64,000 nt of DNA, taken from NCBI GenBank assembly GCA_949292105.1, contig CASEYK010000028.1:5246-69245 (forward strand), in the 5' to 3' direction. Position 1 is the first letter of the stretch; the number at the start of each line of letters is the position of its first letter. This DNA is from an uncultured bacterium (GTDB lineage Bacteria > Bacillota_I > Bacilli_A > RFN20 > CAG-826). Made by a program: the position numbers and the translations under genes. A model generated the notes under the pieces. That model saw only the letters and a list, made by a program, of their open reading frames with translations, had not been told where the DNA came from and made no database searches. Below, piece by piece: positions 1,116 to 29,383 of this stretch.

Positions 1116-2165
1116 ATGGAAAAAATTTTGAAAAATACTAAATATCGAAGAAACTATTTTACTAGCAAAGAACTGGTACCTTTTTATGATGCTTTAGTGG
1201 ATGCTATTTCAAAAAAGAAAAACTTTTTAGAAATTGGAGAATTACTAAATGATGTAAAAGCAGTAGATATTTCAAACGCTTTCGAAAATGTTTTTTTAGA
1301 TAATCCACAATTTTATTACTGTTTCAAAAATACTTTAGTGTTCATTCAAAATAATAGGTTAAATTTAAACTATCAAAACGAATTCACTGACAAAGAAGAA
1401 CAAAACATCGAACAAATAATCGAATATCTTGAAACAAAAACCAATGGTATGGATGAGTATAATACAGCGCTTTTTGCTTTTGAATTTTTAACTCGTTTTT
1501 GTGTGTATGATTCGCGAGCATTGGAAAAGGATTTATCAGAAAAATATGAAAAATTGTACTCTTCTTTTACTTTAAGAGGTGCTTTGATTGATCGAGTTGC
1601 GTGTTGCAATGGTGTTGCTTCAGCTTATTTATATATATTGTATAAATTAGGTATTGATTCGTATATTGCTCGTGCTTCTTTGCCATCACCAAATTCTAGC
1701 GAAAGATTGGAACATGTTTACAATGTCGTAATTATTAATGGTGTCAAGGTTAATGTTGATATTACTTTATCGATGAAAGAGAAGAATAGATTTTTTAGCA
1801 AAGAGAATAGAAATGTTTATTACACAACTCATATCGGCTTTGGTGTTAGCGATAAAGATTTAATTAATATGGGATATCGCCTTTATCAAGATCAAGTTGT
1901 TGACGTACCAACAGATGCAAATGAGAATTTTTCATATTTCATGAAAAATAATTTAATTTTTGATGATTTTCCTGCATTGCGTAACGCCATGTTCTCTATG
2001 TGTAATCGTCATAAGATGTTTGAATGCCGATATGATGGACATTTTAGTAGTCAAAAGCTTAGTGAAAATATTAGTAGGATAAAAAGCATTGTTTCTTGTG
2101 GGGGTATATTAAACCAATATGGAAGGTTCGTTATTTTAATAGGAGGAGAACTATATGAAAATTAA
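1116..2165 (+). CDS. Transglutaminase-like cysteine peptidase domain protein.
   Basis: The CNGVASAYLYILYKLGIDSYIARAS ... EHVYNVVII ... VNVDITL spacing fits a transglutaminase-like Cys-His-Asp core (C-x35-H-x15-D). Its stop overlaps the next start, so it is the first gene of a long + strand operon. Confidence 0.5.
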   Translation: MEKILKNTKYRRNYFTSKELVPFYDALVDAISKKKNFLEIGELLNDVKAVDISNAFENVFLDNPQFYYCFKNTLVFIQNNRLNLNYQNEFTDKEEQNIEQIIEYLETKTNGMDEYNTALFAFEFLTRFCVYDSRALEKDLSEKYEKLYSSFTLRGALIDRVACCNGVASAYLYILYKLGIDSYIARASLPSPNSSERLEHVYNVVIINGVKVNVDITLSMKEKNRFFSKENRNVYYTTHIGFGVSDKDLINMGYRLYQDQVVDVPTDANENFSYFMKNNLIFDDFPALRNAMFSMCNRHKMFECRYDGHFSSQKLSENISRIKSIVSCGGILNQYGRFVILIGGELYEN

Positions 2166-8049: not shown

Positions 8050-8612
8050 TTATCGCCTATATCATTCCAGACATAAAAGACACACTAGGCCCAAACAACC
8101 GATTATGTATATGGGTGAAAGGATGTAAAAAACATTGCAAAAACTGTTTATCACCAGAATTAAGAGCTTTTGCGGGAAATGATTTAGATGTTATAACTTT
8201 TCTCGAAGATAATGTTGATTTTTCGAAAGTGGAAGGAGTAAGCATATCAGGCGGAGAGCCATTTTTACAAAATAATGAACTATTAGATTTGGTTGTTTAT
8301 CTCGAAAGTAAAACAAAGGATATCTTAATCTATTCAGGATACAAATATGAAGAATTAGCAAAAGATCCAATCAACAGATTAATTTTCAAACACATCGCCT
8401 GTTTAATTGACGGAGAATATCTTTACGAACAAGATAAAAACGAAAAATTGAAAGGTTCACTAAATCAGCGCTTTATTTTCTTCCGAAAAGAGTTTGAAAA
8501 CTTATATTTATCTTTGAATAAAAAAGAGAGACAGCCAATTCCTATCATATTTGATAATGAGCATCTATATTTAGAAGTTGGACTACGAAAAAGGAGTACG
8601 AAGAATGTATAA
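8046..8612 (+). CDS. Radical SAM activase-like protein of the 4Fe-4S single-cluster NrdG/QueE/PflA-type.
   Basis: Sequence GPNNRLCIWVKGCKKHCKNCLSP carries a CxxxCxxC cluster motif after a GP..R motif, as in NrdG. VEGVSISGGEPFLQ is the GGEP SAM-binding motif. Size is 188 aa. The start overlaps the upstream stop (ATGA). Confidence 0.6.
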   Translation: MIIAYIIPDIKDTLGPNNRLCIWVKGCKKHCKNCLSPELRAFAGNDLDVITFLEDNVDFSKVEGVSISGGEPFLQNNELLDLVVYLESKTKDILIYSGYKYEELAKDPINRLIFKHIACLIDGEYLYEQDKNEKLKGSLNQRFIFFRKEFENLYLSLNKKERQPIPIIFDNEHLYLEVGLRKRSTKNV

Positions 8613-10680
8613 CTATTACTTTGATTACAAAATTAAAAATGCATCAGACGGTAAAGAATTGTCGAAATATGACGACATCATGTTTTACATAGATCGTCTA
8701 TTTGACGACAATATTTCAAAATTTTGTTATCGTTTAGTGCTCTGCATTAGAAGAGAAATATCAGAACCAACAAACGGCGAACAATGTGTCGACACTATTT
8801 TTGGATGTGAGGATAATTTAAACGAAAAAAACTATGTATCTATTATCCATTTTAAACCCGGTGCATTGCCATCCAATCGCGATGATTTCAATTCTAATTA
8901 TTATTCTCTTTTTGAACATCCAAATAGTGACATTCACTATTTTTTCGAGCATTATACGAGGCTCAGTTCAAACAAAGATGACAATAAAGAGTGTTACTAC
9001 TTGAAATATGTTCTTGATATTCCTGAAGAAAATATTTCATCAATTGGAATGATTGGATTTTCTTCGTCGCTTCAAGAATGCCCTTCGCTGGCTAATACAT
9101 ATTTCTATGAAATTGAATTTTATCGGAAAAAACATATTTTTTATAGCATAGAGAAAAGTTCAAAAAAACTAAAAATTACAATCAAAAACATTCCTCAGGT
9201 TCCGAGTGATATCAAGTTTGTTGTTGCTGGTGATTCATCCCCCATTTATAAATTTGATAACAATATACTCGATGGATTTGAATTAGAGATGAAAGCTGGT
9301 TCTGCTTCTAGAACTATTGAAAAGGAATTCGAGTTGAGTGACGAACAGAGCAAATACAATCATTTTCGTCTTGCCATTAAAACTTATTCAAATGATGACG
9401 AAAATGAATATTTGAAAAATCTTCCATCAAAATTATTTCTTCTTTACCCTCTTCAAGCGCCCGATATAAAAGACAAAACTGATAAGGTAGAAAGAGAAAA
9501 TGTCGGGACTGAAAAGAAAATTTGTCCATTTTGTGCTCAAGAGTTGAATAAAGATGCTTTACAAAGTAAACATCTTCAATATTGTGATGGTGAATTAATA
9601 CCAGTTAAATTTCTTAACAAAAAAGGCAAAAAAATTAAAAAGGTTGTTGCTTGTAAACGATATAACAAATCTAATGGTAAATCTAATCCGACGGTGCCGA
9701 TGGTCATTCCACCTTTTTTGCTCAAAAAGAAAGCAAAAACGATAGTAATCGGTTTAAGCGGTGCTGCTAGCAGTGGTAAATCAGTTTTTCTTTCATCCCT
9801 CTTAAAACTTCAAAATGGCGTTAGCCACGATTTAACATATTTGAACGCCTATACGTCTTTTTATAAAAACAATTTTGAATTAGTTGATTTATTTTATGTC
9901 GAAAATAAAAAAGAAACTGGTCCGACCAACATCTGTGATTTAATGTCGCAACTCGTAAAAGAAACAACGAACAGCACTTCCTCGCGCCTTTACGACAATT
10001 TTAAAATGAATTATTTGAATAAGGGAGGCTTGTTTCAAAAGACCGGAGGAGACGACTTTTATCATCCATTTATTTTTAAATCAAATCATGCTTCATTTGT
10101 TATCAAGGATTTTGCTGGAGAAATTCTATTTGAGGAATCAGAAAATTATGACAATCCTTTGGACCCAAAATTGACCATTGATAATTCTGATGCCTATCTT
10201 GTTTTAATTAAGCCGAATCAAACTGTAGATGAATTTGGAAAAACTTTATCTAGAATTTTAAATAATCAAGATAATAAAAATAAGCCAATCGCCATTGTTT
10301 TGTCTAAATTTGATCTGTTCATTCAACAAAATCAAGATAAAATAGATCCTTCTTTGGCAGCCTTGGTAGATGATACATACTCTCTAATGAATCTTCGCTC
10401 TTATTCTGGCTCTTTGTTAGAAAAAAATGTCGAACGCGCTTCAGAAGAAATTAAAGCTATAATCAAAGATACAATCAAGTCTTTCCCCTTCGAAGCCACA
10501 GAAGGATTTACAAATGTAAAATATTTTGCCATTTCTTCTTTAGGAGGAGATTATCGTTCTTGTCCTGAAAATTTAACAAACGCAGGCGATAGTAATAATA
10601 TATTAGGAATTTATCTTTCTCCATATCGCATCGAGCTCCCAATCCTTTGGATATTACAACAAACTGGAATTATCATGTAG
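8605..10680 (+). CDS. Zn-ribbon + P-loop NTPase (GTPase-like G1/G3/G4 motifs) protein.
   Basis: Sequence CPFCAQELNK...HLQYCDG is a CxxC...C ribbon. GLSGAASSGKSVFLSSLL is Walker A / G1. DFAG is G3. SKFD is a G4-like motif. The start was moved to the ATG at 8605, which follows an AAGGAG RBS. The ORF track begins at a TTG at 8578. Confidence 0.5.
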   Translation: MYNYYFDYKIKNASDGKELSKYDDIMFYIDRLFDDNISKFCYRLVLCIRREISEPTNGEQCVDTIFGCEDNLNEKNYVSIIHFKPGALPSNRDDFNSNYYSLFEHPNSDIHYFFEHYTRLSSNKDDNKECYYLKYVLDIPEENISSIGMIGFSSSLQECPSLANTYFYEIEFYRKKHIFYSIEKSSKKLKITIKNIPQVPSDIKFVVAGDSSPIYKFDNNILDGFELEMKAGSASRTIEKEFELSDEQSKYNHFRLAIKTYSNDDENEYLKNLPSKLFLLYPLQAPDIKDKTDKVERENVGTEKKICPFCAQELNKDALQSKHLQYCDGELIPVKFLNKKGKKIKKVVACKRYNKSNGKSNPTVPMVIPPFLLKKKAKTIVIGLSGAASSGKSVFLSSLLKLQNGVSHDLTYLNAYTSFYKNNFELVDLFYVENKKETGPTNICDLMSQLVKETTNSTSSRLYDNFKMNYLNKGGLFQKTGGDDFYHPFIFKSNHASFVIKDFAGEILFEESENYDNPLDPKLTIDNSDAYLVLIKPNQTVDEFGKTLSRILNNQDNKNKPIAIVLSKFDLFIQQNQDKIDPSLAALVDDTYSLMNLRSYSGSLLEKNVERASEEIKAIIKDTIKSFPFEATEGFTNVKYFAISSLGGDYRSCPENLTNAGDSNNILGIYLSPYRIELPILWILQQTGIIM

Positions 10681-10692
10681 GAGGAACTGAAA

Positions 10693-12882
10693 ATGGAAGA
10701 AAAAACAAACTGGAGTTTTATCAAGCTAGATGCTCAAAAAGATGTGCACATCGCTTTGACGAGTGGTATTTTTCTCGGAAATAACTCTGCATATTACAAA
10801 GATTTAAGCGCGTCAGGCTTTTTGAATATTCAAAGCAGCTTTTTATGCGAACAATTTTTTAGTTATCGGCCAATTGTGATCAATAATACGCTTACCTATT
10901 CTTTTATCTATGGATTTAAGGCCCACGCGACAACCAATCGAAGCACAAATGCCTTTTCATATATTGCATGTTCATCAAATACTTTCAATGCAAATCCAGC
11001 ATTGTTTATTGATAATTCATTTTGTTCAAGCCTTTTTGAAGAATTTAAAACGCTAAATAATGTTGATGCTCTAAACGAGAGTATTAACACAAAATTTGCC
11101 GATAAACCGAAACAATATCATATTAATGAAGAGCTTTGCTCTATCGTTATTGATATAGTCGACAAAATGGTTAAACACGATTTTAAGAAAACTATTTTGC
11201 TCAAAAATTTTGATACTGCTACTATTGGTCTCATCATTCAAGGCGTTTTTTATCTTCTTCCCAAGGATATTGCAAAAGAGCTCTCGTATGTTACCTCCGC
11301 TAGCGGACAAGAAGTTTTAAAGTTTGCTATCGCGGGTCAAACTGATCAATCTAGTCTTGATTCTTCGCGGTTCATCGAATTTCCATCAAAAAATATCAAT
11401 ATCGAAACTTCATATGGAAAGTTTTTGCTAGATAACAAATCTCGAATCGATGATATTGCAACAAAAATTCAGCAAAAACTCGAAAGCCCTATCTTCAATG
11501 ATTTGATAGCTAACAAAAAATATTCCGACGCAGCAATGCTAACTCCTATTTTTATTGGCGAAAAAGATAATTACTTCAATTTGAAATTCGATTTGCAACA
11601 AGTAATTTTAACGAGTTGTGCCAATAATTTAACTGCAGGCATTGCAAAAGAAGCAGTGGAGAAACTACTAAGCGCTTCAATTGATGACAAAAATAGTCAA
11701 CAAAAGGCCGCCCAACAAAGTATCATAAATTTAAGCAAACAATGTGATTTTATATCTTTGATAAATAATGACGACTTAAAGAAATTCGCTGAAAAAATTA
11801 TAGGCGGCAAAGCCACAATCAACTTTGAAAAGATTAATAACCACTTATTAGAATATTATCGCGTGATGTTTGATTGTGTTTTAACTCTTGGTGATGACGA
11901 ACAAAAAGCTAAATTTGTTAATAAATTATCAAACAACTATATTGAGGCAGCATTTGTTAGACAATATCTTACTGATTTGCTTGAATGCGATGATAGCCGA
12001 CAACTTATCAAATACTTATTATTAGAAAACGACTTTATTGAAACTTATTTCAAAGATCGTTCTTCAAACCTAACAAATAACCAATCAAACTTTTCGAAAG
12101 CAGTTGAGGTTAATGTTGTCAACCCAAATAACATCGAATCAAATTTGAAGATATTATTATCAATCGAAAATAATGCATCGGTTAAAAAATTAAGTGAGAG
12201 AAAAAATAGTTTAAATTTTTTGGCTGCCCACTGTTTTAATTATTCTATTGAAGAAATTCTAGGAAACAAAGAGTTAATTATTCACTCAAACTATTTGTAT
12301 AGGCAAGCTTACGCTGCGATGGCTAAAATTATTGGTAGCGATGACAAAGAAACTGAAAAAACTATCAAGAAAAATCTAGACGAAATTCTAAAATTTTGTA
12401 ACCACATTAATGAGTTAGAAGTTGGTGATAACGGCCTTGATACTTTTTCCATTGATAAAATTAAGAAAATGTCAGAATTCGCTGAAAAAGAAAAGAAATC
12501 ATTTTTAATCTTAACCGATGAAAACGATGGTTTTTTAACTAGATTTAACCAGTTTGATAACTATGTGAAAAATATTCCAGCAACAAAAGCTGAAACAAAT
12601 TTCTTTAAAACAACATCCGCGACATCATATTCCCTTATCATTTGTTTTGTCTTAATTGATTTGTTGCTCTCCATCCCGATTTTTTATATGGACAAAGTCA
12701 TATTCCTGTATTCGCTGCTCTCCATCCCTCTTACAATTATTGTCTCGCTTGTCATTCAATTTTTATTTGAAAAAACGCTTAAAAAAATCATGATGAAATA
12801 CATCTCGCTCGGGGCATTATTCAGTTCGATTATTCCTCTAGTTTTAATCAACATATGTTTATTCGTTCTAATGTTTATCTAG
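10693..12882 (+). CDS. Large hypothetical protein with four C-terminal transmembrane helices.
   Basis: ORF of 729 aa preceded by a GGAGG RBS. The last roughly 110 aa are strongly hydrophobic segments. Confidence 0.5.
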   Translation: MEEKTNWSFIKLDAQKDVHIALTSGIFLGNNSAYYKDLSASGFLNIQSSFLCEQFFSYRPIVINNTLTYSFIYGFKAHATTNRSTNAFSYIACSSNTFNANPALFIDNSFCSSLFEEFKTLNNVDALNESINTKFADKPKQYHINEELCSIVIDIVDKMVKHDFKKTILLKNFDTATIGLIIQGVFYLLPKDIAKELSYVTSASGQEVLKFAIAGQTDQSSLDSSRFIEFPSKNINIETSYGKFLLDNKSRIDDIATKIQQKLESPIFNDLIANKKYSDAAMLTPIFIGEKDNYFNLKFDLQQVILTSCANNLTAGIAKEAVEKLLSASIDDKNSQQKAAQQSIINLSKQCDFISLINNDDLKKFAEKIIGGKATINFEKINNHLLEYYRVMFDCVLTLGDDEQKAKFVNKLSNNYIEAAFVRQYLTDLLECDDSRQLIKYLLLENDFIETYFKDRSSNLTNNQSNFSKAVEVNVVNPNNIESNLKILLSIENNASVKKLSERKNSLNFLAAHCFNYSIEEILGNKELIIHSNYLYRQAYAAMAKIIGSDDKETEKTIKKNLDEILKFCNHINELEVGDNGLDTFSIDKIKKMSEFAEKEKKSFLILTDENDGFLTRFNQFDNYVKNIPATKAETNFFKTTSATSYSLIICFVLIDLLLSIPIFYMDKVIFLYSLLSIPLTIIVSLVIQFLFEKTLKKIMMKYISLGALFSSIIPLVLINICLFVLMFI

Positions 12883-16998: not shown

Positions 16999-17032
16999 AA
17001 CAATATAAATAAAATTTGGCGAGGTGTTTTCA

Positions 17033-20000
17033 ATGAAAAAGGTTTTTATCAGTTATGGTCGTGACAGTTTAAGTTTTTTTCCTACTCGCGTGAGCGAAGA
17101 TTTGATAAAAACGGAGCGGTTTGAGACCATTATCGATCAAAGGATGGAATGTGCTGTTAAGTTTGATGATTGGATTCAAGATAGAATTGATGAGAGCGAC
17201 CTCATTATCTTTTTCATGACAAAACATTCAACAAGGCGCCACGACAGCGTATGCTTGGATGAAATCGCATATGCTCGTAGTAAATCTATTCAAATCATTC
17301 CTGTTTTACTCGAAGAGTGCTCTCCGCCCCTTCTTGTGTCACGCATCAATTGGTTAGATGCTCGCGATTGTATAAATGTTGCTAATAAAACCATTATTGA
17401 AAGCCGATACAATGAAAGACTTAATCAAATAATAAAAGCTCTTGACGATGGTGGATTCGATGACGAACTCATTGGAAATGCTTTAAATTTGAAGAAAAAA
17501 CTTCAACCTTTTGACTTTTCTTTAATTTTGTCAGAAAGAAATGATTTTTTCACCGAAAGGCATGAATTTACTAAATTTTATAATGAATGGATTGAAAGTG
17601 ATAATTCGGTGCTTTGGATTGCCGCTAACGCTGGAAGTGGAAAATCGGTTTTATGTTCACATCTCGCCAACGAAGATGTAAGAGTAAAAGGTATTCACTT
17701 CTGTAAAAATTTTAGTACTGATACTGGTCTTGCTAGACGCATCATGACCCATTTAGCCTTCAATATTTTTACGCAGAACGAGCAGTACGGAAAGTCGCTA
17801 GAAGAGAATGTGGATTTTTCTGCATTTGTCAAAAATGATACAACAAAAGTTTTTTACGATTTATTTGTCAAATGTACAGCCCCTTTAGAGCCTAGCGAAC
17901 CATATATTTTGATTATTGATGGCTTAGATGAAGCTCCTTCGAGAGAAATTACTGAATTGAGTAAAGCCTTGTTTGAAAATCGAAATTTAATTCCAAAGTG
18001 GTTAAAATTTATTATTACTTCAAGGCCAGATTTGACTATCCTCCAATCCCTCTCTTTCCTTAGAAAATATGATTTGTTAAATAACAAAGACGATATATTG
18101 GCCTATATTCAACAAATATGTCTTGTCAAAAATTTAAATTTATCACAGCAAGATGTCGATCAAATCGTCGATTTGAGTCAAGGTAATTATCTCTATGTTA
18201 AAACTCTTTTTGATTTGAATGGCGGTTCCACAATTGATTTAGAAACATTGAAGAGTGGTATGTCTTCCATTTTTTCTATTAGTTTTTCGAAATTTTTTAG
18301 TGAAGAAGAATTTGTTCAATTGCCAAGACAATTGCTCCAAATTTTAGTTGCTGCGAAAGATTCGCTAGATGTCGAGACCATTTCTGAAATCATGGGTATC
18401 GGTCATTACGAATTAAACAATTTACTGAAAAAATTTGGGACATTACTCAATAGCAGCGATGCAAAAATCACTCTTTATCACAAGGCACTTGGCGATTGGC
18501 TTACCAGCCAAGATAATATCAATTACTTTGTTTCTTCAATTGAAGGTGATAAACAGATTTGCTTGTGGATTAAAAATAATCCATTTGGCTTCATGTTTAA
18601 TGACTATATTCGCAAATATGGTTTTGACCACCTCTTTAATACAGGCGATTTTGAGACTATCTTCTCTGCCTTAAAAAATACTAATCAGGAAACAGATGAT
18701 TCTCTTTGCTTGACGCTTGTACATAACGCTGTTCCTAATAAATATTCAGCGATTGCCAAGTTCATCTATGAAGGATTTAAAAATGATCCGAAAATTTTCC
18801 CAATTGCTAAAATAATAAGATATTTTGTCGAATATGGATGTTTTGCGTCCATGAGAAGCTTTTTTGCCAATTTTTTCATTCGCCAAAATAAAGAAATTGA
18901 ATGGATTATTCCTTATTCGGATTTAATCACCAACCGAATGCAGATTAAGATTGAAGAAGCGTATAAAACGCCTGAAGATTTGTTTAAGAATGCTCCAGAT
19001 GATGTTTATGCTGAATATTTTTATTATCGTGCCGAAGCATCGAGAGAACTCGGCAAATATAAAGAAGCCTTGAAACTTTATGAAAAAGCGGCGGAAACTT
19101 CTAGTAGTCCGGATCGATTTGCTCATTATATGTCGCTCATTAAAATTGCTGACATTTATTTTGTGTTTGGCGATAATCCAAAAGCGTTAGAAAAAGCCAA
19201 TAGTGTAGTGTTGGCTGATACCAATTTTGAAGGCAATTTTGCAAAAGAGCGAGTTCTTGGGCATATTTATAGAAGCATGGGCAATAGGCATGAAGCCATA
19301 CTGCATTACGAAAACGCATTAAACATCGCTAAAGACATGGGCAAAATGTACGCGATTGTTGAATCATACAATTCGCTTGCCACGGTTCTTGATGATGATA
19401 CCGCTGTTGAATATTTGTTAAAAGTTATTTCGCTCTGCAAAGCGCATGATTATAAATTAGAATTAGGAAAAGCTTATAGCGAACTAGGTAATATTTATCT
19501 TAAGAGAAGTGATATTAATAATGCCATCGAGTGCGGATTGAACGCTAAGCACAACCAAGAAACCGTCAAATATTTAGGCGGAATTTGTCAAGCGCGACGC
19601 CTTTTGATTCGATGTTATCTCCAGCTTCATGATTATCAAAAAGCCTTGCCCTTAGCTCTTTCAAATATCGAGGATATGCTCAATTCTCATTCGAGCCTAA
19701 AAACAGTGCTCAATGATATTCGCTTATATCATTTTTGCCAAAACGGGCTAGGCATATATGAACCTTTTGACGCTAATTTGTTTGCTCTTAAAGACAAAAT
19801 AACAGATGAATGGTTTTATCGTGAATTAGAAAAAAATACGATTGTCAACGCGGTTTTGAAAGAATTTAATTCGAGACCATCTTCTGATTATAAAATCGGA
19901 TACCACAATCAAAACCATACTGTTTCAGTCAATGGAGCCAAATATATTTTAAGAATTCCAGTGGAAGATTTTGATACAGTTGATATTCATGTATTTAATG

Positions 20001-20845
20001 AAAATGATGTGCTCAATTTCTTGGATGAAATTAACTTATCTGTCGATCATCCTCATTTCATTGGCAATGGCATTTTGAATCATACCATTGTGTCTGTTCA
20101 CTCCTTTATTGAAGGAAAACAGTTGCGAGCAACTATTTCCGATAATAAAGAATTAACTAATAATTTTGTGCTTCAATTCGCCCAAATTATGGCCACTTTC
20201 CATTCTTGTCGAACATGTCTTCCAAGCAATGATAACTTATATAGCACAACCAAATCGTTTTATGCCTATGATTATTCTTTTATTTCGAATCTTGTTAACA
20301 AGTGGTTTTTAAGATATCAAAATATGTACATTAAAATGGGATTTCCCACTGATATTAACCTCTTGCTAGCCAGTCATAAAGATGAAATTTTTGAGAACAT
20401 CACTTGTCTAAATCACTGCGATTTGCATCGTGGCAATGTGCTATTAAAAGACGATGGAAAATTTGCCATCATCGATTGGGAACTAACCCAATTTACTGAT
20501 CCTTTATACGACGTAGCCATTCATTTACACAAAATGTTTTATTCTGAAGAACAAGAAAAAATTTTCCTCGATGAATATTTTTCTCACTTTCAATACGATC
20601 GAGAATCTGCTACGCGACAGATTGAAAATTATCGAAGACTAGAAGAAGTTAAAAGTTGTGTTATCGATATAATTAGACTCGTACATGAATTTGGCACGAT
20701 GTCTAAAGAATCATATTTAAATGCTTGTGAAAAATACATCATGAAATTGAAAGTGCTAGAGAAGGAACAAGAGCAATATAAATCACCTTTTAAAAATAAA
20801 GAATCACTTTATCAATTCATCGAGAAAAAGTGGATTTTCTCTTAA
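17033..20845 (+). CDS. TIR - STAND (NACHT/NB-ARC-like) NTPase - TPR - APH/choline-kinase-like phosphotransferase fusion protein.
   Basis: - TIR: KKVFISYGRDS ... VCLDEIAYA gives the TIR FISY box and conserved Glu.
- NTPase: AANAGSGKSV is Walker A, ILIIDGLDEA is Walker B, and KFIITSRPD is the STAND TTR/sensor-1 motif.
- TPR: TPR-like helical repeats with ...YYRAEASRELGKYKEALKLYEKA...
- Kinase: HCDLHRGNVLL...AIIDWELTQFTDPLYDVA matches the APH Brenner HxDxxxxN and DWE motifs, and YILRIP gives the N-lobe Lys.
- Start: placed at ATG 17033, which follows GGCGAGGTG. Confidence 0.75.
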   Translation: MKKVFISYGRDSLSFFPTRVSEDLIKTERFETIIDQRMECAVKFDDWIQDRIDESDLIIFFMTKHSTRRHDSVCLDEIAYARSKSIQIIPVLLEECSPPLLVSRINWLDARDCINVANKTIIESRYNERLNQIIKALDDGGFDDELIGNALNLKKKLQPFDFSLILSERNDFFTERHEFTKFYNEWIESDNSVLWIAANAGSGKSVLCSHLANEDVRVKGIHFCKNFSTDTGLARRIMTHLAFNIFTQNEQYGKSLEENVDFSAFVKNDTTKVFYDLFVKCTAPLEPSEPYILIIDGLDEAPSREITELSKALFENRNLIPKWLKFIITSRPDLTILQSLSFLRKYDLLNNKDDILAYIQQICLVKNLNLSQQDVDQIVDLSQGNYLYVKTLFDLNGGSTIDLETLKSGMSSIFSISFSKFFSEEEFVQLPRQLLQILVAAKDSLDVETISEIMGIGHYELNNLLKKFGTLLNSSDAKITLYHKALGDWLTSQDNINYFVSSIEGDKQICLWIKNNPFGFMFNDYIRKYGFDHLFNTGDFETIFSALKNTNQETDDSLCLTLVHNAVPNKYSAIAKFIYEGFKNDPKIFPIAKIIRYFVEYGCFASMRSFFANFFIRQNKEIEWIIPYSDLITNRMQIKIEEAYKTPEDLFKNAPDDVYAEYFYYRAEASRELGKYKEALKLYEKAAETSSSPDRFAHYMSLIKIADIYFVFGDNPKALEKANSVVLADTNFEGNFAKERVLGHIYRSMGNRHEAILHYENALNIAKDMGKMYAIVESYNSLATVLDDDTAVEYLLKVISLCKAHDYKLELGKAYSELGNIYLKRSDINNAIECGLNAKHNQETVKYLGGICQARRLLIRCYLQLHDYQKALPLALSNIEDMLNSHSSLKTVLNDIRLYHFCQNGLGIYEPFDANLFALKDKITDEWFYRELEKNTIVNAVLKEFNSRPSSDYKIGYHNQNHTVSVNGAKYILRIPVEDFDTVDIHVFNENDVLNFLDEINLSVDHPHFIGNGILNHTIVSVHSFIEGKQLRATISDNKELTNNFVLQFAQIMATFHSCRTCLPSNDNLYSTTKSFYAYDYSFISNLVNKWFLRYQNMYIKMGFPTDINLLLASHKDEIFENITCLNHCDLHRGNVLLKDDGKFAIIDWELTQFTDPLYDVAIHLHKMFYSEEQEKIFLDEYFSHFQYDRESATRQIENYRRLEEVKSCVIDIIRLVHEFGTMSKESYLNACEKYIMKLKVLEKEQEQYKSPFKNKESLYQFIEKKWIFS

Positions 20846-21873: not shown

Positions 21874-23733
21874 ATGGCGAAAATGTCGTTGAGCGAAAAA
21901 ATTAAAAACGAATATCAAGAAAAATATTTAGAAGTCTCTAAAAAGATTACATATTTGGATTTGGATGAAACAGACAATGTTGAAGTGGTCATGTACAAAG
22001 ATTTGCCAAAGACTGTTGTCAAAGGTTTTCCTGTGGCTAGCGATTTCATTGATAAAGAGGGAAATATTTATTCAACAAAAAGCTTCTTGAAACTATCAGC
22101 AGAAAAGAAAAAAGAATGCGAACTGCGATATTTCTTTTTACCTAAAAATCATGAATTGTATGTTGGGGCGACGGGTAGTGGAAAGACGACGGGATGTGTT
22201 GTGCCGCAGTTAAGAGCCATCGCTTCTAAAAAAAATAAGTCCAGCCTTTTTATTACTGATCCAAAGGGTGAATTATTTGATAAAAATGCCGATTTTCTTC
22301 AAAAACAGGGCTATAAAACCTTCGTTTTAAATTTCAAAAACACTAGCCGTTCTGATCGCTGGAGTGTTTTTGAAGATTTGTATAGCATTAAAATTAAAAC
22401 TCTTTCGATTGGCAAAGGAATGAAATATAAGACTGGCATTCCATCTGCTTCGTTAGAATTGTATAGCGATATAAGCGATTTTAATTCGGAAAATTATATC
22501 GAATATGATGGCAAAGCCTTTGCCAACGGTAATGACTTTGATGAATATGTTCGGATTCAAAAAGATTTGATTGAAGCCGAACTGGATTCATCGCTAAATG
22601 AATTAGCTAATACAATGATTGTTGTTCAATCTCGAAATGATAAGACTTGGGAATATGGCGCAATTGATTTATTAAAGGGCATTATTCGCTGTATGCTTAC
22701 TGATTTAGTTAATCCCAAAAGTGGATTTACAAAAGACATGCTCAATTTGAACAATTTACAATTTTATTATACAACGCTCAAAAATACTCTCACTGATTCA
22801 GAATTTTCTGGAAGTAGTCAAAACGCTAGATTCAACAATCATCCACTTCTGGTCGATAAAGATGTTCGAACAAAAGCTTTATTGTCGGCCGCGTTGAATA
22901 ATTCCCCTAATACAATGAGAAATTATTGTGGTGTTTTTGATAATTCGATGACTGATTGGTTTCAAGCCCACATTTATGCATTGACCAATGGTAATAATAT
23001 TGATATCGATAACATTCCTGATGATCAGCCGTATGCCATTTTTCTCATTACACGCGATTATGAAAAAAATGACTATCGCATCGCTGGCATTTTTATCGAC
23101 TATGTTTATCGACATTTGATTATGCGCGCCGAGTGTAGCGAGCGCCCGCGCGAATTCCATTTTTTGCTCGATGAATTTGGGAATGTTCCAAAAATAAAAG
23201 ATTTTGAAAATAAAATTGCTACGGCTAGAAGCCGCAACATTTGGTTCCATCTTTATTTGCAATCATATTTTCAACTTGACGCTATTTACACAGCAGATGT
23301 CGCAACAATTATACGAGATAATTGTAGTTCACAAATCTTTTTAGGAGCTCAAAATCGAGCGACTAAAGAAGACTTTTCGAAACAATGTGGTATGCATTAT
23401 GTACCATCGTTTTCTAGCTATCTAAATAATGAATCACAGCCTAACTTGGTTGAGGTTCCTCTTGTTCCCGTCAGTTCGCTAGATTTAATCGAGCCGGGAG
23501 AAATATATACCAAAAGAACATATAAGCCTGTCATGGTTGCGCAGTTTATTCGAAGCTATGTCTGCGGTGAATGTGGTGCATACGAAGATCATCAAGACGT
23601 TGAAGGTTTAAAAACATGTGTGCCTCATGAGCACGGCGGATTTAATGGTCCTCAATACATTTGGCCCAAACTGCAAGAAATGCATACTAAGAAAAAGAAG
23701 AAAATTGATCTAGATGATATCTTAGGAGATTAA
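21874..23733 (+). CDS. TraG/VirD4-family (type IV coupling protein-like) ATPase. It is soluble, with no N-terminal TM helices, and has a C-terminal Cys-rich Zn-ribbon-like tail.
   Basis: Sequence VGATGSGKTTGCVVPQL is Walker A + the PnLL box. HFLLDEFGNV is Walker B. ARSRNIWFHLYLQSYFQLDAIY matches the T4CP RSrGi...QslsQL block. C-terminal CGECG...CVPHEHGG. Confidence 0.6.
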   Translation: MAKMSLSEKIKNEYQEKYLEVSKKITYLDLDETDNVEVVMYKDLPKTVVKGFPVASDFIDKEGNIYSTKSFLKLSAEKKKECELRYFFLPKNHELYVGATGSGKTTGCVVPQLRAIASKKNKSSLFITDPKGELFDKNADFLQKQGYKTFVLNFKNTSRSDRWSVFEDLYSIKIKTLSIGKGMKYKTGIPSASLELYSDISDFNSENYIEYDGKAFANGNDFDEYVRIQKDLIEAELDSSLNELANTMIVVQSRNDKTWEYGAIDLLKGIIRCMLTDLVNPKSGFTKDMLNLNNLQFYYTTLKNTLTDSEFSGSSQNARFNNHPLLVDKDVRTKALLSAALNNSPNTMRNYCGVFDNSMTDWFQAHIYALTNGNNIDIDNIPDDQPYAIFLITRDYEKNDYRIAGIFIDYVYRHLIMRAECSERPREFHFLLDEFGNVPKIKDFENKIATARSRNIWFHLYLQSYFQLDAIYTADVATIIRDNCSSQIFLGAQNRATKEDFSKQCGMHYVPSFSSYLNNESQPNLVEVPLVPVSSLDLIEPGEIYTKRTYKPVMVAQFIRSYVCGECGAYEDHQDVEGLKTCVPHEHGGFNGPQYIWPKLQEMHTKKKKKIDLDDILGD

Positions 23734-23738
23734 ACAAT

Positions 23739-25916
23739 ATGCTCGCGGTTGATATACTTATTACTCTTTGTCTCATTGTTTTACTTTTCTACGCGCTATA
23801 TGTAGTGACGAAATTGTGTGTTTTAAAACGCGGCGATAAGTTGTCTTATCTCAAAGGTTTTAAAAAAGGAAAGTTTGCTTTCATCTACTTTATTGCTATT
23901 TTTCTCTATTGGATTGGATATTATCAAATCAATAACAAATTAGATCAATCGTTTATAAGCGCGATTAATGACACCATTGATTTGGTTGTTTTAAAAATCA
24001 AGATATCAGGTATTTATTCATATATGGAAACCAATGCGTATTATGCCGCTTCCATGTATATTCTTTTTTGTCTTGTTGTCTTGAATGTCTTTTTATTTGC
24101 TTTTGCGCTGTTTGGACAAAGTATTGTTAATTTCTTTAAAAGAGTTTATTACACGCATGTTGCGAAAAAAATTTATGTTGTTATCGGATTTAATAAGAGC
24201 AATGAATCGGTGCTCAAATCGATTAAAAGTAAAAAATATAATGTTATTTTATTCGCAGAAGCTGGCAAGAACTATTTAGATTTCACATATATAAACAAAA
24301 TTTGCTATATCAAATATTTTGATAACACTGATTTTTATGATAAATTGTCCAAACTTTTTAAGAATTTTACAAATCGTAGCGTAGAAGTAATTATTAATAC
24401 TGGCAACGATGAAAAAAATATTATTCTCACCGAACAAATCAGCAACATCATTCTTGATGATAAGTTGACAAAATATACTTCTGATGTCGATTGTGGCCTT
24501 CGCGTCTATGTCTTTGGTGAGCCACAAAATGTTTCATCTTTTTCCCATTATGTTAAAAAAACAAATGGATGCGTTCATTATTTGAATAAATACAAAATTG
24601 TTGCGAATGATTTTATCGACAAATATCCTCTTACCCAATTTATGAATGATGATGAAATTGATTATAGTAGTGCAACGATTAAAGAAGATGTCGATCTCAA
24701 TGTTATTCTTATCGGATACGGGAAAACAAATCAGCAAATATTCCTCTCTTCCGTGGCCATCAATCAATTTATTACTTTCGACAGAAATCATCGTCTTGTC
24801 GATAAACCAGTTAATTATTTTATTTATGATAAAGAAATTTCTAATAACGAAAAAAACTTAAATCATGCTTTTTATCGCTTTAAAAGCGAATTGGATACAG
24901 ATCAAGATAAATATTTGCCACTCCCTCCTTTCCCTGCCAATGATAATTTCTTAAAACTAGACATTAATGATAATCATTTTTATGAAATGATTAAAAGCAA
25001 TATCCACCCGCAAGGTAGACGAAAAGCGTTTAATTACATCGTTATTGCTTTCGGTACCGATTTAGAAAATCTCGATTTAGCTGAGAAAATATGTTCTAAG
25101 TTAAAAGAGTGGGGATTATTCAATAAAACCAAAGTTTTTCTCAAAATTCGCAACGGCGAATTAGCCACACAAGTCGTCAATAAAGAATTTATATCGACGA
25201 GCGGATTCTATACTTTTGGCAATGAGAGCGAAGTTGTCTATGATATCGATAAAATTGTGACAGAAAAAATTGAATTGATGGCAATGGATCGACATCTTTC
25301 ATATAACATCAAAAGCAATATGAATTTAGAAACAGCCAAGCAAGTAATTGAAGAAGCGACGAAGAGTTGGTACGCGATGCATCAAATTCAAAGAGAAAGC
25401 AACATTTACGCGATTTTAAGTATCCGTTCCAAACTCCAGTTGCTCGGGTTTGATTATGCTCCAGTTAACAGTCCTCTTGGCGATGAAAGTGCAGCATATC
25501 AAAAGGCTTATGAAAAAGACGATCCGATTGTCTATGACGACACAAGAGAAGATGTCAAAGGTAAAAAAACCATTGTTTATACAAATGAACGAGTGAGCCA
25601 TAGCGTAAGAGAAAATCTAGCTATCTTGGAGCATCAAAGATGGAATGCATACATGATTTCCAAAGGAAATATTCCTTCAACTATTGAACAAATTAAAAAC
25701 AATGATTCAAAACGTCTAGATTTGAGAAGGCATGGCAATATTACTACTTTTGAAGGCTTAATTGAATTTAGAAAAATAATGGCCGAAGTCAAGCATCTCT
25801 CAGAAGAAGAAACAGATGTTATCCGTTATGACTATCAAATAATGGATGATTTAGTTTGGCTATTGCACAAAAACGGCTATAAGATTGTCAAAAAAGAGGA
25901 GAAAAAAGATGAGTGA
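23739..25916 (+). CDS. Polytopic membrane protein with two Rossmann/RCK-like cytoplasmic domains and a C-terminal RyR domain (paralog A).
   Basis: Four N-terminal hydrophobic helices. KIYVVIGFNKSNESVLKSI and VILIGYGKTNQQIF are GxGxxG-like. LEHQRWNAYMISKGNIP...RHGNITTFEGL matches the RyR HExW..GW.yg...H.c...eL pattern. It is a paralog of 26999-29383. Confidence 0.55.
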   Translation: MLAVDILITLCLIVLLFYALYVVTKLCVLKRGDKLSYLKGFKKGKFAFIYFIAIFLYWIGYYQINNKLDQSFISAINDTIDLVVLKIKISGIYSYMETNAYYAASMYILFCLVVLNVFLFAFALFGQSIVNFFKRVYYTHVAKKIYVVIGFNKSNESVLKSIKSKKYNVILFAEAGKNYLDFTYINKICYIKYFDNTDFYDKLSKLFKNFTNRSVEVIINTGNDEKNIILTEQISNIILDDKLTKYTSDVDCGLRVYVFGEPQNVSSFSHYVKKTNGCVHYLNKYKIVANDFIDKYPLTQFMNDDEIDYSSATIKEDVDLNVILIGYGKTNQQIFLSSVAINQFITFDRNHRLVDKPVNYFIYDKEISNNEKNLNHAFYRFKSELDTDQDKYLPLPPFPANDNFLKLDINDNHFYEMIKSNIHPQGRRKAFNYIVIAFGTDLENLDLAEKICSKLKEWGLFNKTKVFLKIRNGELATQVVNKEFISTSGFYTFGNESEVVYDIDKIVTEKIELMAMDRHLSYNIKSNMNLETAKQVIEEATKSWYAMHQIQRESNIYAILSIRSKLQLLGFDYAPVNSPLGDESAAYQKAYEKDDPIVYDDTREDVKGKKTIVYTNERVSHSVRENLAILEHQRWNAYMISKGNIPSTIEQIKNNDSKRLDLRRHGNITTFEGLIEFRKIMAEVKHLSEEETDVIRYDYQIMDDLVWLLHKNGYKIVKKEEKKDE

Positions 25917-26451
25917 AAATTATACGGATATAAAAGATAAATTGTTCAAGGATAGAACTATCGTCATCTGCGGTCCAATCGACAACGCTAAAGCGACATC
26001 AATTATTTTTTCTCTTTTAACTTTTGATTCGGAGAGCAATGACGAAATTCAATTATTCATTAGTTCTCTGGGTGGGGAATATCTCGACTCGCTTGCTATC
26101 TACGACACGATTAAAAGAATCAAATCGCCAATATCTGCAACTTGTATTGGATTTGCCAACGGATATGCTGCATTAATTTTGGCGTGCTGTAGTAAAGGGC
26201 ATCGATACGCTTTAAAACATAGTCAAATTAACTTTGAACAACCATATGGTGTAATTAATCAAGGCGTCAATCAAGAAACAGAAATACGCATTAGCGCCAA
26301 AGAAGCAGCAATCGAAAGAGAAGTGTTTGAAAAAATGCTTTCTGAACACACCGGTCAACCAGTCGAAAAAATTCATAAAGATTTAGAAGCCGGCATCACA
26401 TTGAATGTTGAAGAAGCGCTAACTTATGGCGTTATTGACAAAATCATTTAA
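25909..26451 (+). CDS. ClpP-family protein that is catalytically inactive (ClpR-like). It lacks the N-terminal axial loop and has a Lys/Arg-rich N-terminal extension.
   Basis: Collinear with ClpP (IYDTIKRIKSPISATCIGF...). The Ser position reads GFANGYAALIL (Ser to Gly), the His position reads NFEQP (His to Glu), and the Asp position reads LEAGITL. The start was set to the ATG at 25909, which follows a GAGGAG RBS. Confidence 0.7.
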   Translation: MSENYTDIKDKLFKDRTIVICGPIDNAKATSIIFSLLTFDSESNDEIQLFISSLGGEYLDSLAIYDTIKRIKSPISATCIGFANGYAALILACCSKGHRYALKHSQINFEQPYGVINQGVNQETEIRISAKEAAIEREVFEKMLSEHTGQPVEKIHKDLEAGITLNVEEALTYGVIDKII

Positions 26452-26466: not shown

Positions 26467-26988
26467 ATGGCCAAAGATATGAGAATTATCCTCATTAGTG
26501 GAGAAATTGATGAAAATGTTGCAATGGATGTCATTTTGCGTCTTTTGCTCTTAGACAAGCAATCCCACACTGAAGAAATTGTTATGTATATTAACTCGAG
26601 CGGCGGAAGTATTTTAAGCGGACTTGCCATATACGATGTCATTAATTACATTCAAGCTCCTGTCAGCACAGTATGCTTTGGCATGGCGGCATCGATGGGT
26701 GCCTTCTTATTATCTTGCGGTCAAAAGGGAAGAAGATTTGCTCTGGCGCATAGCCGCATTCTCATCCATCAACCATTGATTTATTCTTCTTCACCAGTTT
26801 TAAAAGCCCAATCATCTCTTGCTAGAATGGCTAAGCAAATTGAAAATAGCCGTCTTGAGTTAGAGAAGATTATGGCTAAAAATTTATCAAAAAGTTTTGA
26901 AGAGTTGCACCGCGACTGCGAGCGCGATAACTGGATGAGTGCTTTTGAAGCCAAAGAATATGGAATTATCGACAAAGTTTTAGAATAG
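26467..26988 (+). CDS. ClpP-family serine peptidase with an intact Ser-His-Asp triad and the roughly 22 N-terminal residues (axial gating loop) missing.
   Basis: Sequence GMAASMGAFLL (Ser), RILIHQPL (His), ERDNWMSAFEAKEYGIIDKV (Asp). It aligns end-to-end with canonical ClpP from position about 25 onward. A GAGG RBS lies 8 nt upstream. Confidence 0.75.
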   Translation: MAKDMRIILISGEIDENVAMDVILRLLLLDKQSHTEEIVMYINSSGGSILSGLAIYDVINYIQAPVSTVCFGMAASMGAFLLSCGQKGRRFALAHSRILIHQPLIYSSSPVLKAQSSLARMAKQIENSRLELEKIMAKNLSKSFEELHRDCERDNWMSAFEAKEYGIIDKVLE

Positions 26989-26998: not shown

Positions 26999-29383
26999 AT
27001 GAATTGCATTTTTGATGTAGCGTTAAGCGGTGGTTGGCACTTTGCTATTGGAGTTGTTCTTGGCATCATTATTTTAGCTATTGCTTACATTATCTTAATG
27101 GTTGCTTACATCAAAACACGACAAAAATATTCAGGCAACAAATATTTGGTAGAAGTCTTGTATATCGTTGCTGTTCTCATCTTTAGTTTTGCTATTAAAT
27201 TAACAATTATCTCTATCGTGCTTCCAAAAAATATTGAAAGCGGCGTTACAGCCTTTTTCTATGCTTTGTATAACGGATTTGGAGGTTTGGTATTTGAAGG
27301 GTTGAGCGAGGATATTGGTATTATCTCAAGTGCTACTCTTCAATATTTATATACTGGCAGTTCTATTTTAGCTGCTATTATTTTTGTTAGCGTTTTAGCA
27401 ACACGTTTTAACTATGAGATATATAGTTACTTCTCGTTAGTTATTAATCGTTGCATTTTAAAAATACGTAAGAATAAAGATATTTATATCTTTAAATGTG
27501 TTACTAGCGATTCTCTTATATTGGCTAATTCAATTGTAGAAACATATCGTACAAAGGATGTTAAAAATAAAAAATGTTTAATTATCTTCACTGGTCAAAA
27601 TCTGCCTCCTTTTAATCGAAACGATGAGACGATGAAAGAGATTATGGCCAAAGGATACATTTATTGGCCTTATTCCTTATCACACGACAAAGAAAGAAAT
27701 AGATCAGTTTTATCCAAATTACATTTGTATGTTGATAATGAGCACTTTCAAAACAAAACTAATAAAACTTTTAGCAAAAACTATCCTTCAATTCATATTT
27801 TTGCTCTTGACAATAAAGACACAGTGGGAAAAGAGACAAACAACGCTGATGATATTTTTGAAGAGATTCAAATGATGGTTAAAGAATTTCATCGAAAGAA
27901 CAAATATTATCATGTTAATTTATATGTGCTGACGAACAACTATCTCAATTACATTTTCTACGACAAAAGGCTTGACGAAATATGCGGATTAAGACGCAGC
28001 GATAAAAATGGCGAATCCCAAACAATTCAAGAAAAGGCGATTCAAGCTGAAGCAGGAAATTTAAGACAGTATTTTTCCATTCATGTTCTCAATGAAGCAA
28101 ATTTAGTTTCTCGCGATTTTATCAATAAGAAAATCCAAGCATTTGAAAATGGTGGGATAGAAATGGTTGAAGAGCTTGACGGTGTAAGAGCTTATACAAA
28201 TACATATCGTGTATTAACGCTTGGTTTTGGCTATACCGGCCAGCAAGCAACTTTGCAAGCTTATATTAACTCAGCTAATCTTTCGACAAATTTTGAAATT
28301 GATGGATTTGAAGCAGACATTTTTGACACGAAAATGGATTCAATCAGCGGTATTTTTGCCCTTCAGCATCCTTTAATCGTTTGTTGCAATAACGATACCT
28401 CAGAAGAATTAGAAAAGAAAAAGCAGAGAATTATAAGTGAAAAAGCCAATTCTTATTTATCAAGAGGAATAAAAGATAATAAATGCTTTAAACTTCCTGT
28501 TTTCATTTTTCATAATGCCTCCTGTTTTAATCAAGATTTTGTTAAATTTTTGTACAAAGATGGCAACCATGTTTTAGCCAAAAAATACAATCTCATTATT
28601 ATTGCGCTCGGTGATGATGAGATAAATATTAGAGCTGCTAATGCGATTATTAATCGATTAAATCACGAAAGTGTTACAATAGAACAGCACAAGATTGTTG
28701 CTGTTAATATTATCAATCAAAAGAATATTTGCCGCCTCGATGAAGTAAAAAATAGTGATTATGTCCATGTCATCGCTTTTGGCTGCCGCGAAACAATTTA
28801 TTCATATGATTACATCATTAGAGAAGATGCATTTATGGAATATAATTTCCGCTATGGCGTTATCTTTGATGAAAAAAATCATATTTTAGGACCATCTAGT
28901 GGAGATAGTTTGTTAAATTCATTTGTCAAAAAGGTTATTTCAAATAAAAAACTATCTCTGAATAGTCAAGATTTGGATGATATTAATCAAACCCTCACTG
29001 ATAAATTTCGCACAAATGCAGATTATATCGTTGAGAAAAAATGGCAAATCAGTCTTTTCCAAAAACAGTCGAATGTTTTTGCCGCTTTATTCAAACCGAT
29101 AATGGCTTCTTTCATAAGGAGTTATCCTTCAGAAGATGAATTTAATAATAGTGCGGATTATCTTGTTGATAAATTTACATTCTTATCGTGCGTTGAACAT
29201 GAACGATGGTCAAGATTTTTGATAGCCAATGGTTGGGTTTATAGCCAAACAAGAATTGATTCAGCAAGAGAACACAACTGTTTGACAACTTTTTTTGAAC
29301 TTAATGCAACAGATAGGATAAATGATTTAATCAATGTCATTGTCGCTTTAAGTTTGGCAAAAGAAGGGATGAATAAAAAATGA
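26999..29383 (+). CDS. Polytopic membrane protein with Rossmann/RCK-like domains and a C-terminal RyR domain (paralog B).
   Basis: Five N-terminal hydrophobic helices. YRVLTLGFGYTGQQATL is GxGxxG-like. VEHERWSRFLIANGWVYSQ...REHNCLTTFFELNATDR is a clear RyR-domain signature. Confidence 0.55.
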   Translation: MNCIFDVALSGGWHFAIGVVLGIIILAIAYIILMVAYIKTRQKYSGNKYLVEVLYIVAVLIFSFAIKLTIISIVLPKNIESGVTAFFYALYNGFGGLVFEGLSEDIGIISSATLQYLYTGSSILAAIIFVSVLATRFNYEIYSYFSLVINRCILKIRKNKDIYIFKCVTSDSLILANSIVETYRTKDVKNKKCLIIFTGQNLPPFNRNDETMKEIMAKGYIYWPYSLSHDKERNRSVLSKLHLYVDNEHFQNKTNKTFSKNYPSIHIFALDNKDTVGKETNNADDIFEEIQMMVKEFHRKNKYYHVNLYVLTNNYLNYIFYDKRLDEICGLRRSDKNGESQTIQEKAIQAEAGNLRQYFSIHVLNEANLVSRDFINKKIQAFENGGIEMVEELDGVRAYTNTYRVLTLGFGYTGQQATLQAYINSANLSTNFEIDGFEADIFDTKMDSISGIFALQHPLIVCCNNDTSEELEKKKQRIISEKANSYLSRGIKDNKCFKLPVFIFHNASCFNQDFVKFLYKDGNHVLAKKYNLIIIALGDDEINIRAANAIINRLNHESVTIEQHKIVAVNIINQKNICRLDEVKNSDYVHVIAFGCRETIYSYDYIIREDAFMEYNFRYGVIFDEKNHILGPSSGDSLLNSFVKKVISNKKLSLNSQDLDDINQTLTDKFRTNADYIVEKKWQISLFQKQSNVFAALFKPIMASFIRSYPSEDEFNNSADYLVDKFTFLSCVEHERWSRFLIANGWVYSQTRIDSAREHNCLTTFFELNATDRINDLINVIVALSLAKEGMNKK

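Follow-up and report, generated by a model that had tools for sequence, protein, structure and literature searches.

A choline-kinase/APH-like kinase fused to, or encoded beside, bacterial TIR-NACHT-TPR proteins

A 64,000-nucleotide stretch of chromosomal DNA from an uncultured bacterium (GTDB lineage Bacillota_I; Bacilli_A; RFN20; CAG-826), comprising positions 5,246 to 69,245 of contig CASEYK010000028.1 in GenBank assembly GCA_949292105.1 and referred to here as the window, carries a gene on the + strand (17033..20845; 1270 codons plus stop) whose product joins a TIR domain, a STAND NTPase, a TPR array and a kinase in a single polypeptide. A first-pass annotation of the window had read this protein as an NLR/Avs-type immune sensor of unusual architecture, with a phosphotransferase-fold module added behind the TPR array. 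We describe the protein and its relatives, in which the same kinase is found both as a fusion and as the product of a neighbouring gene.

Domain organization of the protein

The longest open reading frame (ORF) at this site opens at a GTG codon (17024). We prefer the ATG at 17033 as the start, because a Shine-Dalgarno-like GAGGTG, read from the sequence at 17021..17026 (+), lies 6 nucleotides upstream of it. The resulting protein has 1270 residues, one fewer than the 1271 given in the first-pass annotation, and contains every motif quoted there: FISY (residues 5-8) and VCLDEIAYA (73-81) in the TIR; GSGKS (201-205), IIDGLDEA (294-301) and IITSRPD (327-333) in the NTPase; and HCDLHRGNVLL (1128-1138), IIDWE (1146-1150) and DPLYDVA (1156-1162) in the kinase. 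The assignment of TIR, STAND NTPase, TPR and APH domains made in that annotation was likewise borne out when the protein was scanned with Pfam profiles, as all four domains exceeded their curated cut-offs.

A protein identical to the window product (P0001) is present in public assemblies. Eleven variants of at least 95% identity, recovered from several samples on contigs as long as 85 kb, are each exactly 1270 residues long, and diverged proteins of 44% and 31% identity are collinear with the window protein from end to end, with key motifs invariant. Because such same-length variants and collinear diverged proteins exist, the fusion is real rather than an artefact of assembly; the 11 variants, together with seven diverged full-length proteins that keep the TIR-NACHT-TPR-kinase order, rule out a chimeric contig or a frameshift as its origin.

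The TIR domain (residues 1-140; 17033..17452, +) matches Pfam TIR_2 over residues 4-111 (48.6 bits against a cut-off of 28, E 1e-12). Searches of the PDB with the single TIR or the single NTPase sequence returned no significant match; for the TIR, a profile search succeeded, in which a profile of 18 homologous TIRs matched the TIR domains of SARM1 (E 2e-10), Cat1 (4e-10) and AbTIR (5e-8), together with those of further NADases. Cat1 is a CRISPR-associated protein. In the profile alignment, the invariant Glu77 of the window protein (17261-17263, +; within VCLDEIAYA) falls on the Glu within SARM1 ‘hkEIVTA’, taken here to be the catalytic E642; among 28 homologues this putative catalytic residue is at least 90% conserved. 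We infer from the alignment that the TIR is of the NADase type, has retained its catalytic Glu and would cleave NAD+.

The NTPase and an associated winged helix (residues 165-520; 17525..18592, +) match Pfam NPHP3_N (PF24883), a NACHT-type P-loop family, over residues 183-331 (74.7 bits against a cut-off of 24.8, E 1e-20). The classic NACHT model PF05729 reaches only 17.6 bits against a cut-off of 26.7, the match being of the NPHP3/TANC-like flavour. The Walker A motif ANAGSGKS (residues 198-205; 17624-17647, +) fits [AG]xxxxGK[ST], and the Walker B motif LIIDGLDE (D296-G-L-D299-E300; 17906-17932, +) fits exactly the D[GAS]hDE signature that sets NACHT apart from other STANDs (Kibby et al., bioRxiv 10.1101/2022.07.19.500537). 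Judged by this signature, the NTPase belongs to the NACHT clade in its NPHP3/TANC-like flavour. A sensor Arg (Arg331) sits within the TSR of the NTPase, and the winged helix carries His483 in LYHKALGDWL (18473-18502, +); the winged-helix model HTH_TANC1 falls below its cut-off of 27 bits in the window protein (24.3 bits, residues 420-513) and exceeds it in the homologues P0053 and P0054 (29.6 and 32.5 bits). Across 28 homologues G203, K204 and D296 are invariant, with D299, E300, R331 and H483 at least 90% conserved. A helical region and TPR array then follow (residues 521-905; 18593..19747, +), with recognisable TPRs at approximately 660-870 and matches to TPR_1 (48.7 bits against a cut-off of 27.8) and TPR_12 (46.8 against 30.1) that both lie within residues 660-770. 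When a full-length profile was used, it matched TPR proteins in the PDB, and these TPR matches swamped the signal of the NTPase.

The C-terminal kinase (residues 933-1266; 19829..20830, +) matches Pfam APH (PF01636) over residues 956-1189 (66.1 bits against a cut-off of 23.2, E 5e-18). Its catalytic set is present throughout: R974 in beta3, E990 in alphaC, H1128, D1130 and N1135 of the Brenner motif HxDxxxxN (here HCDLHRGN, 20414-20437, +, with Asp1130 and Asn1135 as the catalytic residues), and the metal-binding Asp1148 in IDWE (20474-20482, +). This set (beta3 Arg, alphaC Glu, HxDxxxxN and DWE) is invariant in 33 of 33 proteins that carry the kinase as a fusion; in 30 relatives, mostly stand-alone proteins, it is invariant save for R974, which is at least 90% conserved. 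By these residues the kinase is probably catalytically competent.

An AlphaFold2 model of the kinase built from a 30-sequence alignment has a pLDDT of 90.9, and supersedes a first model, built from three sequences, whose pLDDT was 64 and whose Foldseek TM-scores of 0.3-0.4 were uninformative. The domain has the bilobal fold of small-molecule kinases, and its comparison figures are 19.5 for the Plasmodium falciparum choline kinase, 19.0 for the APH-like 3csv, 18.8 for homoserine kinase and 18.3 for LicA, as against about 11 for protein kinases. It shares HxDxxxxN with LicA (4r77), the P. falciparum choline kinase (PfChoK, 6yxs), APH, Mph and homoserine kinase II, and its segment from D-W-E to DPLYDVAIHLHK is similar to the choline-kinase motif; the Arg in place of Lys at beta3 is likewise as in choline kinases. 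It differs from choline/ethanolamine and APH-family kinases in being fused to an NLR and in sharing only 12-19% sequence identity with them. The kinase reaches no NCBIfam equivalog cut-off (the best being GntI, 39 bits against 357, and ThiK, 35.6 against 299), and because these cut-offs are missed by a wide margin the domain is no known resistance or metabolic enzyme. An aminoglycoside or macrolide resistance enzyme was ruled out on the same grounds (APH_3p 13.9 bits against 205, MPH_3 26.2 against 500, MphE 19.9 against 640).

Fused, split and kinase-less relatives

A word-indexed search of 5.8 billion clustered proteins with the full protein recovered only three full-length relatives (P0001-3), the remaining matches being TIR-NPHP3_N proteins that end in TPR, WD40 or ankyrin repeats and lack the kinase; the search for homologues with and without the kinase module that the first-pass annotation had proposed thus recovers both forms. 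The fused architecture was found in 3 of 185,579 species genomes, all three being metagenome-assembled genomes (MAGs) of uncultured Bacilli/Firmicutes. Word-indexed searches with the kinase domain alone gave zero matches, the parent protein included, and eight with a 30-sequence profile. Because these searches were nearly blank, an exhaustive HMMER search was needed, and in this the kinase profile identified 1374 relatives among 1.84 billion representatives (58 at E <=1e-30), the majority of which are stand-alone proteins of 320-350 residues. Domain scans of the long matches revealed five further TIR-NACHT-TPR-kinase clusters (P0053, P0062, P0095, P0100 and P0107). The order of domains, which had been called unusual from the sequence alone, is therefore rare, and it is undescribed in the literature searched.

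The same kinase is found attached to other NTPases. One protein (P0151) is a NACHT-kinase fusion without a TIR. Approximately 14 others, of 969-1167 residues, have a P-loop (STAND-like NTPase) at the extreme N-terminus, then a helical/TPR region and then the kinase; they possess no N-terminal effector, and the kinase is their sole enzymatic domain besides the P-loop. In addition, several TPR-kinase proteins have no NTPase at all. Pfam TCAD9 gave weak, sub-cut-off matches on the kinase region of four homologues. Phage records, viral contigs and plasmids yielded no full-length relative, the plasmid matches being confined to stand-alone actinobacterial kinases in uninformative contexts, and a JGI metagenome scan identified 13 distant TIR-NACHT loci, with a kinase nearby in none of the 13.

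At five loci (L023, L027, L028, L019 and L015) the kinase is instead encoded by a separate gene adjacent to a receptor or TPR gene. In Granulicoccus sp. GXG6511 (L023), the kinase gene (P0058, WP_432558636.1) starts 14 nucleotides before the stop codon of the gene for a 956-residue TIR-NPHP3_N-TPR protein (P0007, WP_432558635.1), which is itself a homologue of the window protein. On two JGI metagenome contigs (L027 and L028), the kinase gene (P0071) overlaps by 8 nucleotides the end of a gene for a 954-residue TIR-NPHP3_N-winged-helix-TPR protein. At L019, the gene of a TPR protein that aligns to the TPR region of the window protein (residues 658-876; 30% identity, E 2e-12) ends 10 nucleotides before that of P0056, the best-scoring stand-alone kinase, and in Paenibacillus (L015) the genes come in the opposite order, the kinase lying 36 nucleotides upstream of a gene for an NPHP3_N-TPR protein collinear with window residues 164-840. 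The occurrence of kinase and receptor both fused and adjacent argues for a functional and physical partnership, and the kinase looks, from these arrangements, like a dedicated partner module of the TIR-NACHT-TPR receptor. The description of the kinase as an extra module behind the TPR array in the first-pass annotation therefore holds for the window protein, where it is fused, and does not hold as a one-off addition, since the kinase is also encoded as a separate, coupled gene and is fused to other NTPases.

Other features of these loci were also recorded. On L027, the kinase is followed by a second TIR-NACHT gene (8209-10809), incomplete at the contig end, and is thus flanked by two paralogous NLR genes. 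A gene for a 96-residue RyR-domain protein (L027 3742-4032, L028 3271-3561) lies, with a TrkA_N gene, directly upstream of the TIR-NLR and kinase pair; an RyR-domain protein is also encoded 6 kb downstream of the window gene (26999-29383), which may be coincidence. The NLR of L015 begins with a 340-residue region that has no Pfam match and is possibly an effector of unknown kind.

In a neighbour-joining tree of the kinases, which carries no support values, the kinases fused to TIR-NLRs stand in leaf order beside split and solo kinases, and those of the N-terminal P-loop family lie elsewhere, beside Chloroflexi kinases in metabolic synteny. At least two NTPase lineages have each acquired a kinase of this one clade. 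The slot that the kinase occupies can hold a different enzyme: the closest kinase-less TIR-NACHT-TPR relative (P0004) is followed by a complete classical short-chain dehydrogenase/reductase (SDR) gene that overlaps its stop codon by 8 nucleotides (L042 3033-3737), and the SDR, which keeps TGxxxGxG and YxxxK, fills the position held by the kinase in relatives. This looks, by gene order, like a swapping of enzymatic modules, and hints that NLRs of one family may be coupled to small-molecule-modifying enzymes that can replace one another.

We read the window gene as the fused form of a conserved two-part module in which an NLR-like TIR-NACHT-TPR receptor is paired with a dedicated choline-kinase/APH-like kinase, catalytically competent by its sequence and most likely an active output or signal-modifying step, and we place the probability of this reading at roughly 60%. 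The kinase is most likely an active enzyme rather than a decayed, repeat-like appendage. An active enzymatic role is favoured because the catalytic residues are strictly conserved; because, in comparison with the 31%-identical orthologue, the kinase (43% identity) has been kept as well as the TIR (44%) and better than the NACHT (29%) and TPR (28%) regions; because, in the N-terminal P-loop family, nothing but the kinase could serve as the output; and because an SDR fills the coupled downstream slot of P0004. It is favoured, too, because the effectors of bNACHT proteins are sometimes found at the far C-terminal end, behind the repeats (Kibby et al., bioRxiv 10.1101/2022.07.19.500537), and Kaur et al. 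(PMC7159879, PMC8195603) class APH-like kinases as effectors.

Several considerations pull the other way. The SDR was observed at one locus only. The kinase lies where sensors usually lie and a TIR effector is present already, so that a role in sensing, or as a guarded partner, is nearly as likely as one in output. In addition, among the 11 near-identical variants, variable columns make up 8% of the TPR region, 9% of the kinase and 27% of the C-terminal tail, as against 2-3% of the NACHT domain, a distribution that weakly fits a sensor end.

It is possible, then, if less probable than an enzymatic output, that the kinase is a sensor or a guarded (integrated-decoy) partner held by the TPR array. 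Contact of the kinase with a phage factor or small molecule, whether as a binder, an inhibitor or a substrate, would shift the conformation of the TPR-kinase unit, release the NACHT domain and allow the TIRs to assemble, in what would be a bacterial counterpart of the plant ZAR1-RKS1/PBL2 and Prf-Pto pairs and of NLRs with integrated kinases. This would accord with the placement of the kinase directly after the TPR array, as for the sensors of bNACHT and Avs proteins, in a protein whose canonical effector is N-terminal. The overlapping stop and start codons of the split forms suggest 1:1 co-translation and a stable complex, and since TPR-kinase proteins without an NTPase exist, TPR and kinase together may be an autonomous binding unit. 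Decoys, however, often lose catalytic residues, all of which are invariant here, and the deep conservation of the kinase, like that of the TIR and above that of the TPR region, is unlike that of fast-evolving sensors. Under this explanation the N-terminal P-loop family would, moreover, own a sensor without an output, and the signal from population variation comes mostly from a single variant of 95% identity.

More specific still, and rather doubtful in our estimation, is the proposal that the kinase serves in one of two ways: as a catalytic sensor, guarded or integrated, by which the NLR monitors a small-molecule kinase whose binding or inhibition phages cannot do without, or as an enzyme that makes or quenches an immune messenger by phosphorylating an NAD+ product of the TIR or another infection metabolite.

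Genomic setting of the gene and its relatives

Cumulative GC skew rises across the chromosomal window, and the presence of mnmG (GidA; 55697-57571, +) suggests that it probably lies near the replication origin. The gene is found within a 32-kb block of + strand ORFs (1-32132), most of which have no family assignment. Those that can be named include a ClpX-like AAA_2 ATPase (2155-4344), a Fer4_12 radical-SAM-activase-like protein (8046-8612), a VirD4/TraG coupling protein of type IV secretion systems (21874-23733), two tandem ClpP genes (25885-26451 and 26467-26988), the RyR-domain protein mentioned above and a Sel1 protein (30795-32132). For ten ORFs of the block, coding for 306-1039 residues, Pfam, PADLOC and PHROGs gave no functional assignment, the sole signals being a GLUG motif, a sub-cut-off RyR domain and two weak matches to PHROG families of unknown function; the 1039-residue ORF also had no plasmid match. 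Possibly the block is an uncharacterised element concerned with mobility or secretion, with only the coupling protein hinting at mobility. A heliorhodopsin gene (37425-38213, +; PF18761, 322 bits) was also noted in this Bacilli-like chromosome of approximately 33% GC.

No neighbour is common to the window and the loci of the relatives. A multi-gene operon with the flanking 1039- and 306-residue ORFs was accordingly ruled out, and the window protein behaves as a self-contained, single-gene unit. Three related MAGs carry the gene at the same conserved position, flanked by a CoA-disulfide-reductase-like gene on one side and flavin reductase/pheST on the other.

Defence genes were found near some relatives, in a sample (L001, L015 and L025) too small for statistics. 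Approximately 6-8.5 kb upstream of the 44%-identical orthologue P0002 lie an AbiLi-like ATPase (L001 1505-3859; PADLOC E 2e-25) and then a DUF4420 protein, which are probably an AbiL-type pair. In Paenibacillus sp. NEAU-GSW1, the kinase and NPHP3_N-TPR pair is accompanied by three dynamin-like GTPases and a type I HsdM methylase (L015 1-4657 and 12064-12969), and both of the GTPases scanned match the LeoA/LeoBC (Eleos) models of PADLOC. At L025, a type IIG restriction-modification enzyme is encoded nearby. An anti-phage role for the family is plausible by analogy, because a TIR-STAND-TPR protein protects E. coli (PMC9122126) and because some relatives lie near such genes.

The window itself gives a different picture, since the protein and ten of its neighbours match no PADLOC model and the location beside defence-like genes reported in the first-pass annotation is therefore unsupported here. 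The site shared by the three MAGs adjoins housekeeping genes (pheST, mraZ, ftsAZ) and is not a typical defence island, and the Granulicoccus copy lies among proC and asd-type genes. These settings would suit a non-immune STAND signal-transduction ATPase that, like MalT, AfsR or PknK, acts as a regulator, here of a metabolic small-molecule kinase, the TIR then being an NAD-linked or protein-interaction module of normal physiology. So would the conserved metabolic synteny of the close stand-alone Chloroflexi kinases, which are found with aldolase, aspartokinase and RelA/SpoT genes, and the resemblance of the N-terminal P-loop/helical/kinase family to regulated-enzyme STANDs. We nevertheless consider a purely physiological role improbable: a TIR with a conserved catalytic Glu, followed by NACHT and TPR, is also how proteins with experimentally validated anti-phage activity are built; the family is rare and patchily distributed, its fused form being carried by the three species genomes noted above; its lineages share no neighbours; and restriction-modification, AbiL-like and Eleos-like genes stand beside some of its members.

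Proposed mechanism and relation to known systems

If the protein acts as an immune receptor, its mechanism may be sketched by analogy with TIR-STAND-TPR and bNACHT proteins whose defence activity has been validated. An infection cue would be detected by the C-terminal TPR/kinase end, upon which the NACHT domain would bind or exchange NTP and oligomerise, and the N-terminal TIRs, now clustered, would cleave NAD+ and halt the growth of the infected cell. The kinase would provide a second, NACHT-controlled output or a step that modifies the signal, by phosphorylating a hydroxyl of a small molecule or, possibly, of a bound protein. In this scheme the anti-phage role, NADase activity, kinase activity, the substrate of the kinase and the direction of signalling are all predicted.

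In the current view, a bacterial NLR-like protein combines three parts: effector, NTPase switch, and a sensor made of repeats to which a phage protein binds. To these parts the present family would add an obligatory and apparently active small-molecule-type kinase, fused or translationally coupled to the receptor. A sensing kinase would mean that bacterial NLRs use enzyme-based or guard-type sensing, and an output kinase that STAND switches can drive phosphorylation chemistry alongside NAD+ cleavage. The existence of fused and split pairs provides a clean experimental handle with which to separate the functions of TIR, NACHT and kinase.

The Avs (AVAST) proteins, antiviral STANDs reportedly described by Gao et al. 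in 2020 and 2022, follow the same logic of N-terminal effector, STAND NTPase and C-terminal sensor. The NTPase of the window protein differs from theirs in being NACHT-clade, and no Avs model of PADLOC-DB 2.0.0 matched the protein even at E up to 1; its sole PADLOC signals (TPR, PD-T4-6 and mad8, E 0.009-0.04) are at chance level. The NLR/Avs-type label of the first-pass annotation hence stands for the overall architecture and fails for Avs proper. In a 2026 census of STANDs, the main text lists sensors that are mostly TPR-like, with WD40 and FGE-sulfatase as others, and no kinase (PMC13581612).

The bNACHT proteins share with the window protein a tripartite plan of N-terminal effector, NACHT with winged helix, and C-terminal repeats, and TIR is among the N-terminal effectors listed for them (Kibby et al., bioRxiv 10.1101/2022.07.19.500537). 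The window module, being NPHP3_N/TANC-like, differs in scoring below the PF05729 cut-off. In that study the kinases named, as effectors, are only protein (S/T/Y) kinases, with APH/choline-kinase-like kinases absent from the main text and supplementary discussion. The TIR-NLR of P4-like satellites is a single-gene TIR-STAND-TPR system that protects E. coli from phage (Rousset et al. 2022, PMC9122126); it likewise has TIR, STAND NTPase and TPR in one polypeptide, and it lacks the kinase that the window protein possesses.

A link between STANDs and APH-superfamily kinases has been drawn by Kaur et al. (2020, PMC7159879; 2021, PMC8195603). Active APH-like kinases appear there only as ‘a few examples’ of effectors in multi-gene ternary, iSTAND2 and TERNS3 systems, and those of STAND conflict systems are predicted to phosphorylate low-molecular-weight substrates. 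The window kinase resembles them, by description, as an active APH-superfamily kinase linked to a STAND. The passages retrieved from the two papers do not mention a TIR-NACHT-TPR-kinase fusion, a split operonic form or a recurrent link to a single kinase clade. More generally, the literature searched, including the census in its main text and the papers of Kaur et al. to the extent just given, describes neither a TIR-NACHT-TPR-kinase protein nor its split, operonic counterpart, nor the recruitment of one kinase clade by several NTPase lineages.

NLRs are coupled to kinases in plants as well, as in ZAR1-RKS1-PBL2, Prf-Pto and NLRs with integrated kinase domains, where the kinase-fold proteins involved belong to the eukaryotic protein kinase family, as protein kinases or as pseudokinases. 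The window protein and its split relatives are similar in that an NLR is coupled, by fusion or as a partner, to a protein with a kinase fold, and differ in that this kinase is choline-kinase/APH-like with its catalytic residues intact; the likeness is one of analogy only, with no evidence of common descent. Set beside all of these systems, the TIR-NACHT-TPR core of the window protein is already known, and the addition that appears to be new relative to it is the kinase.

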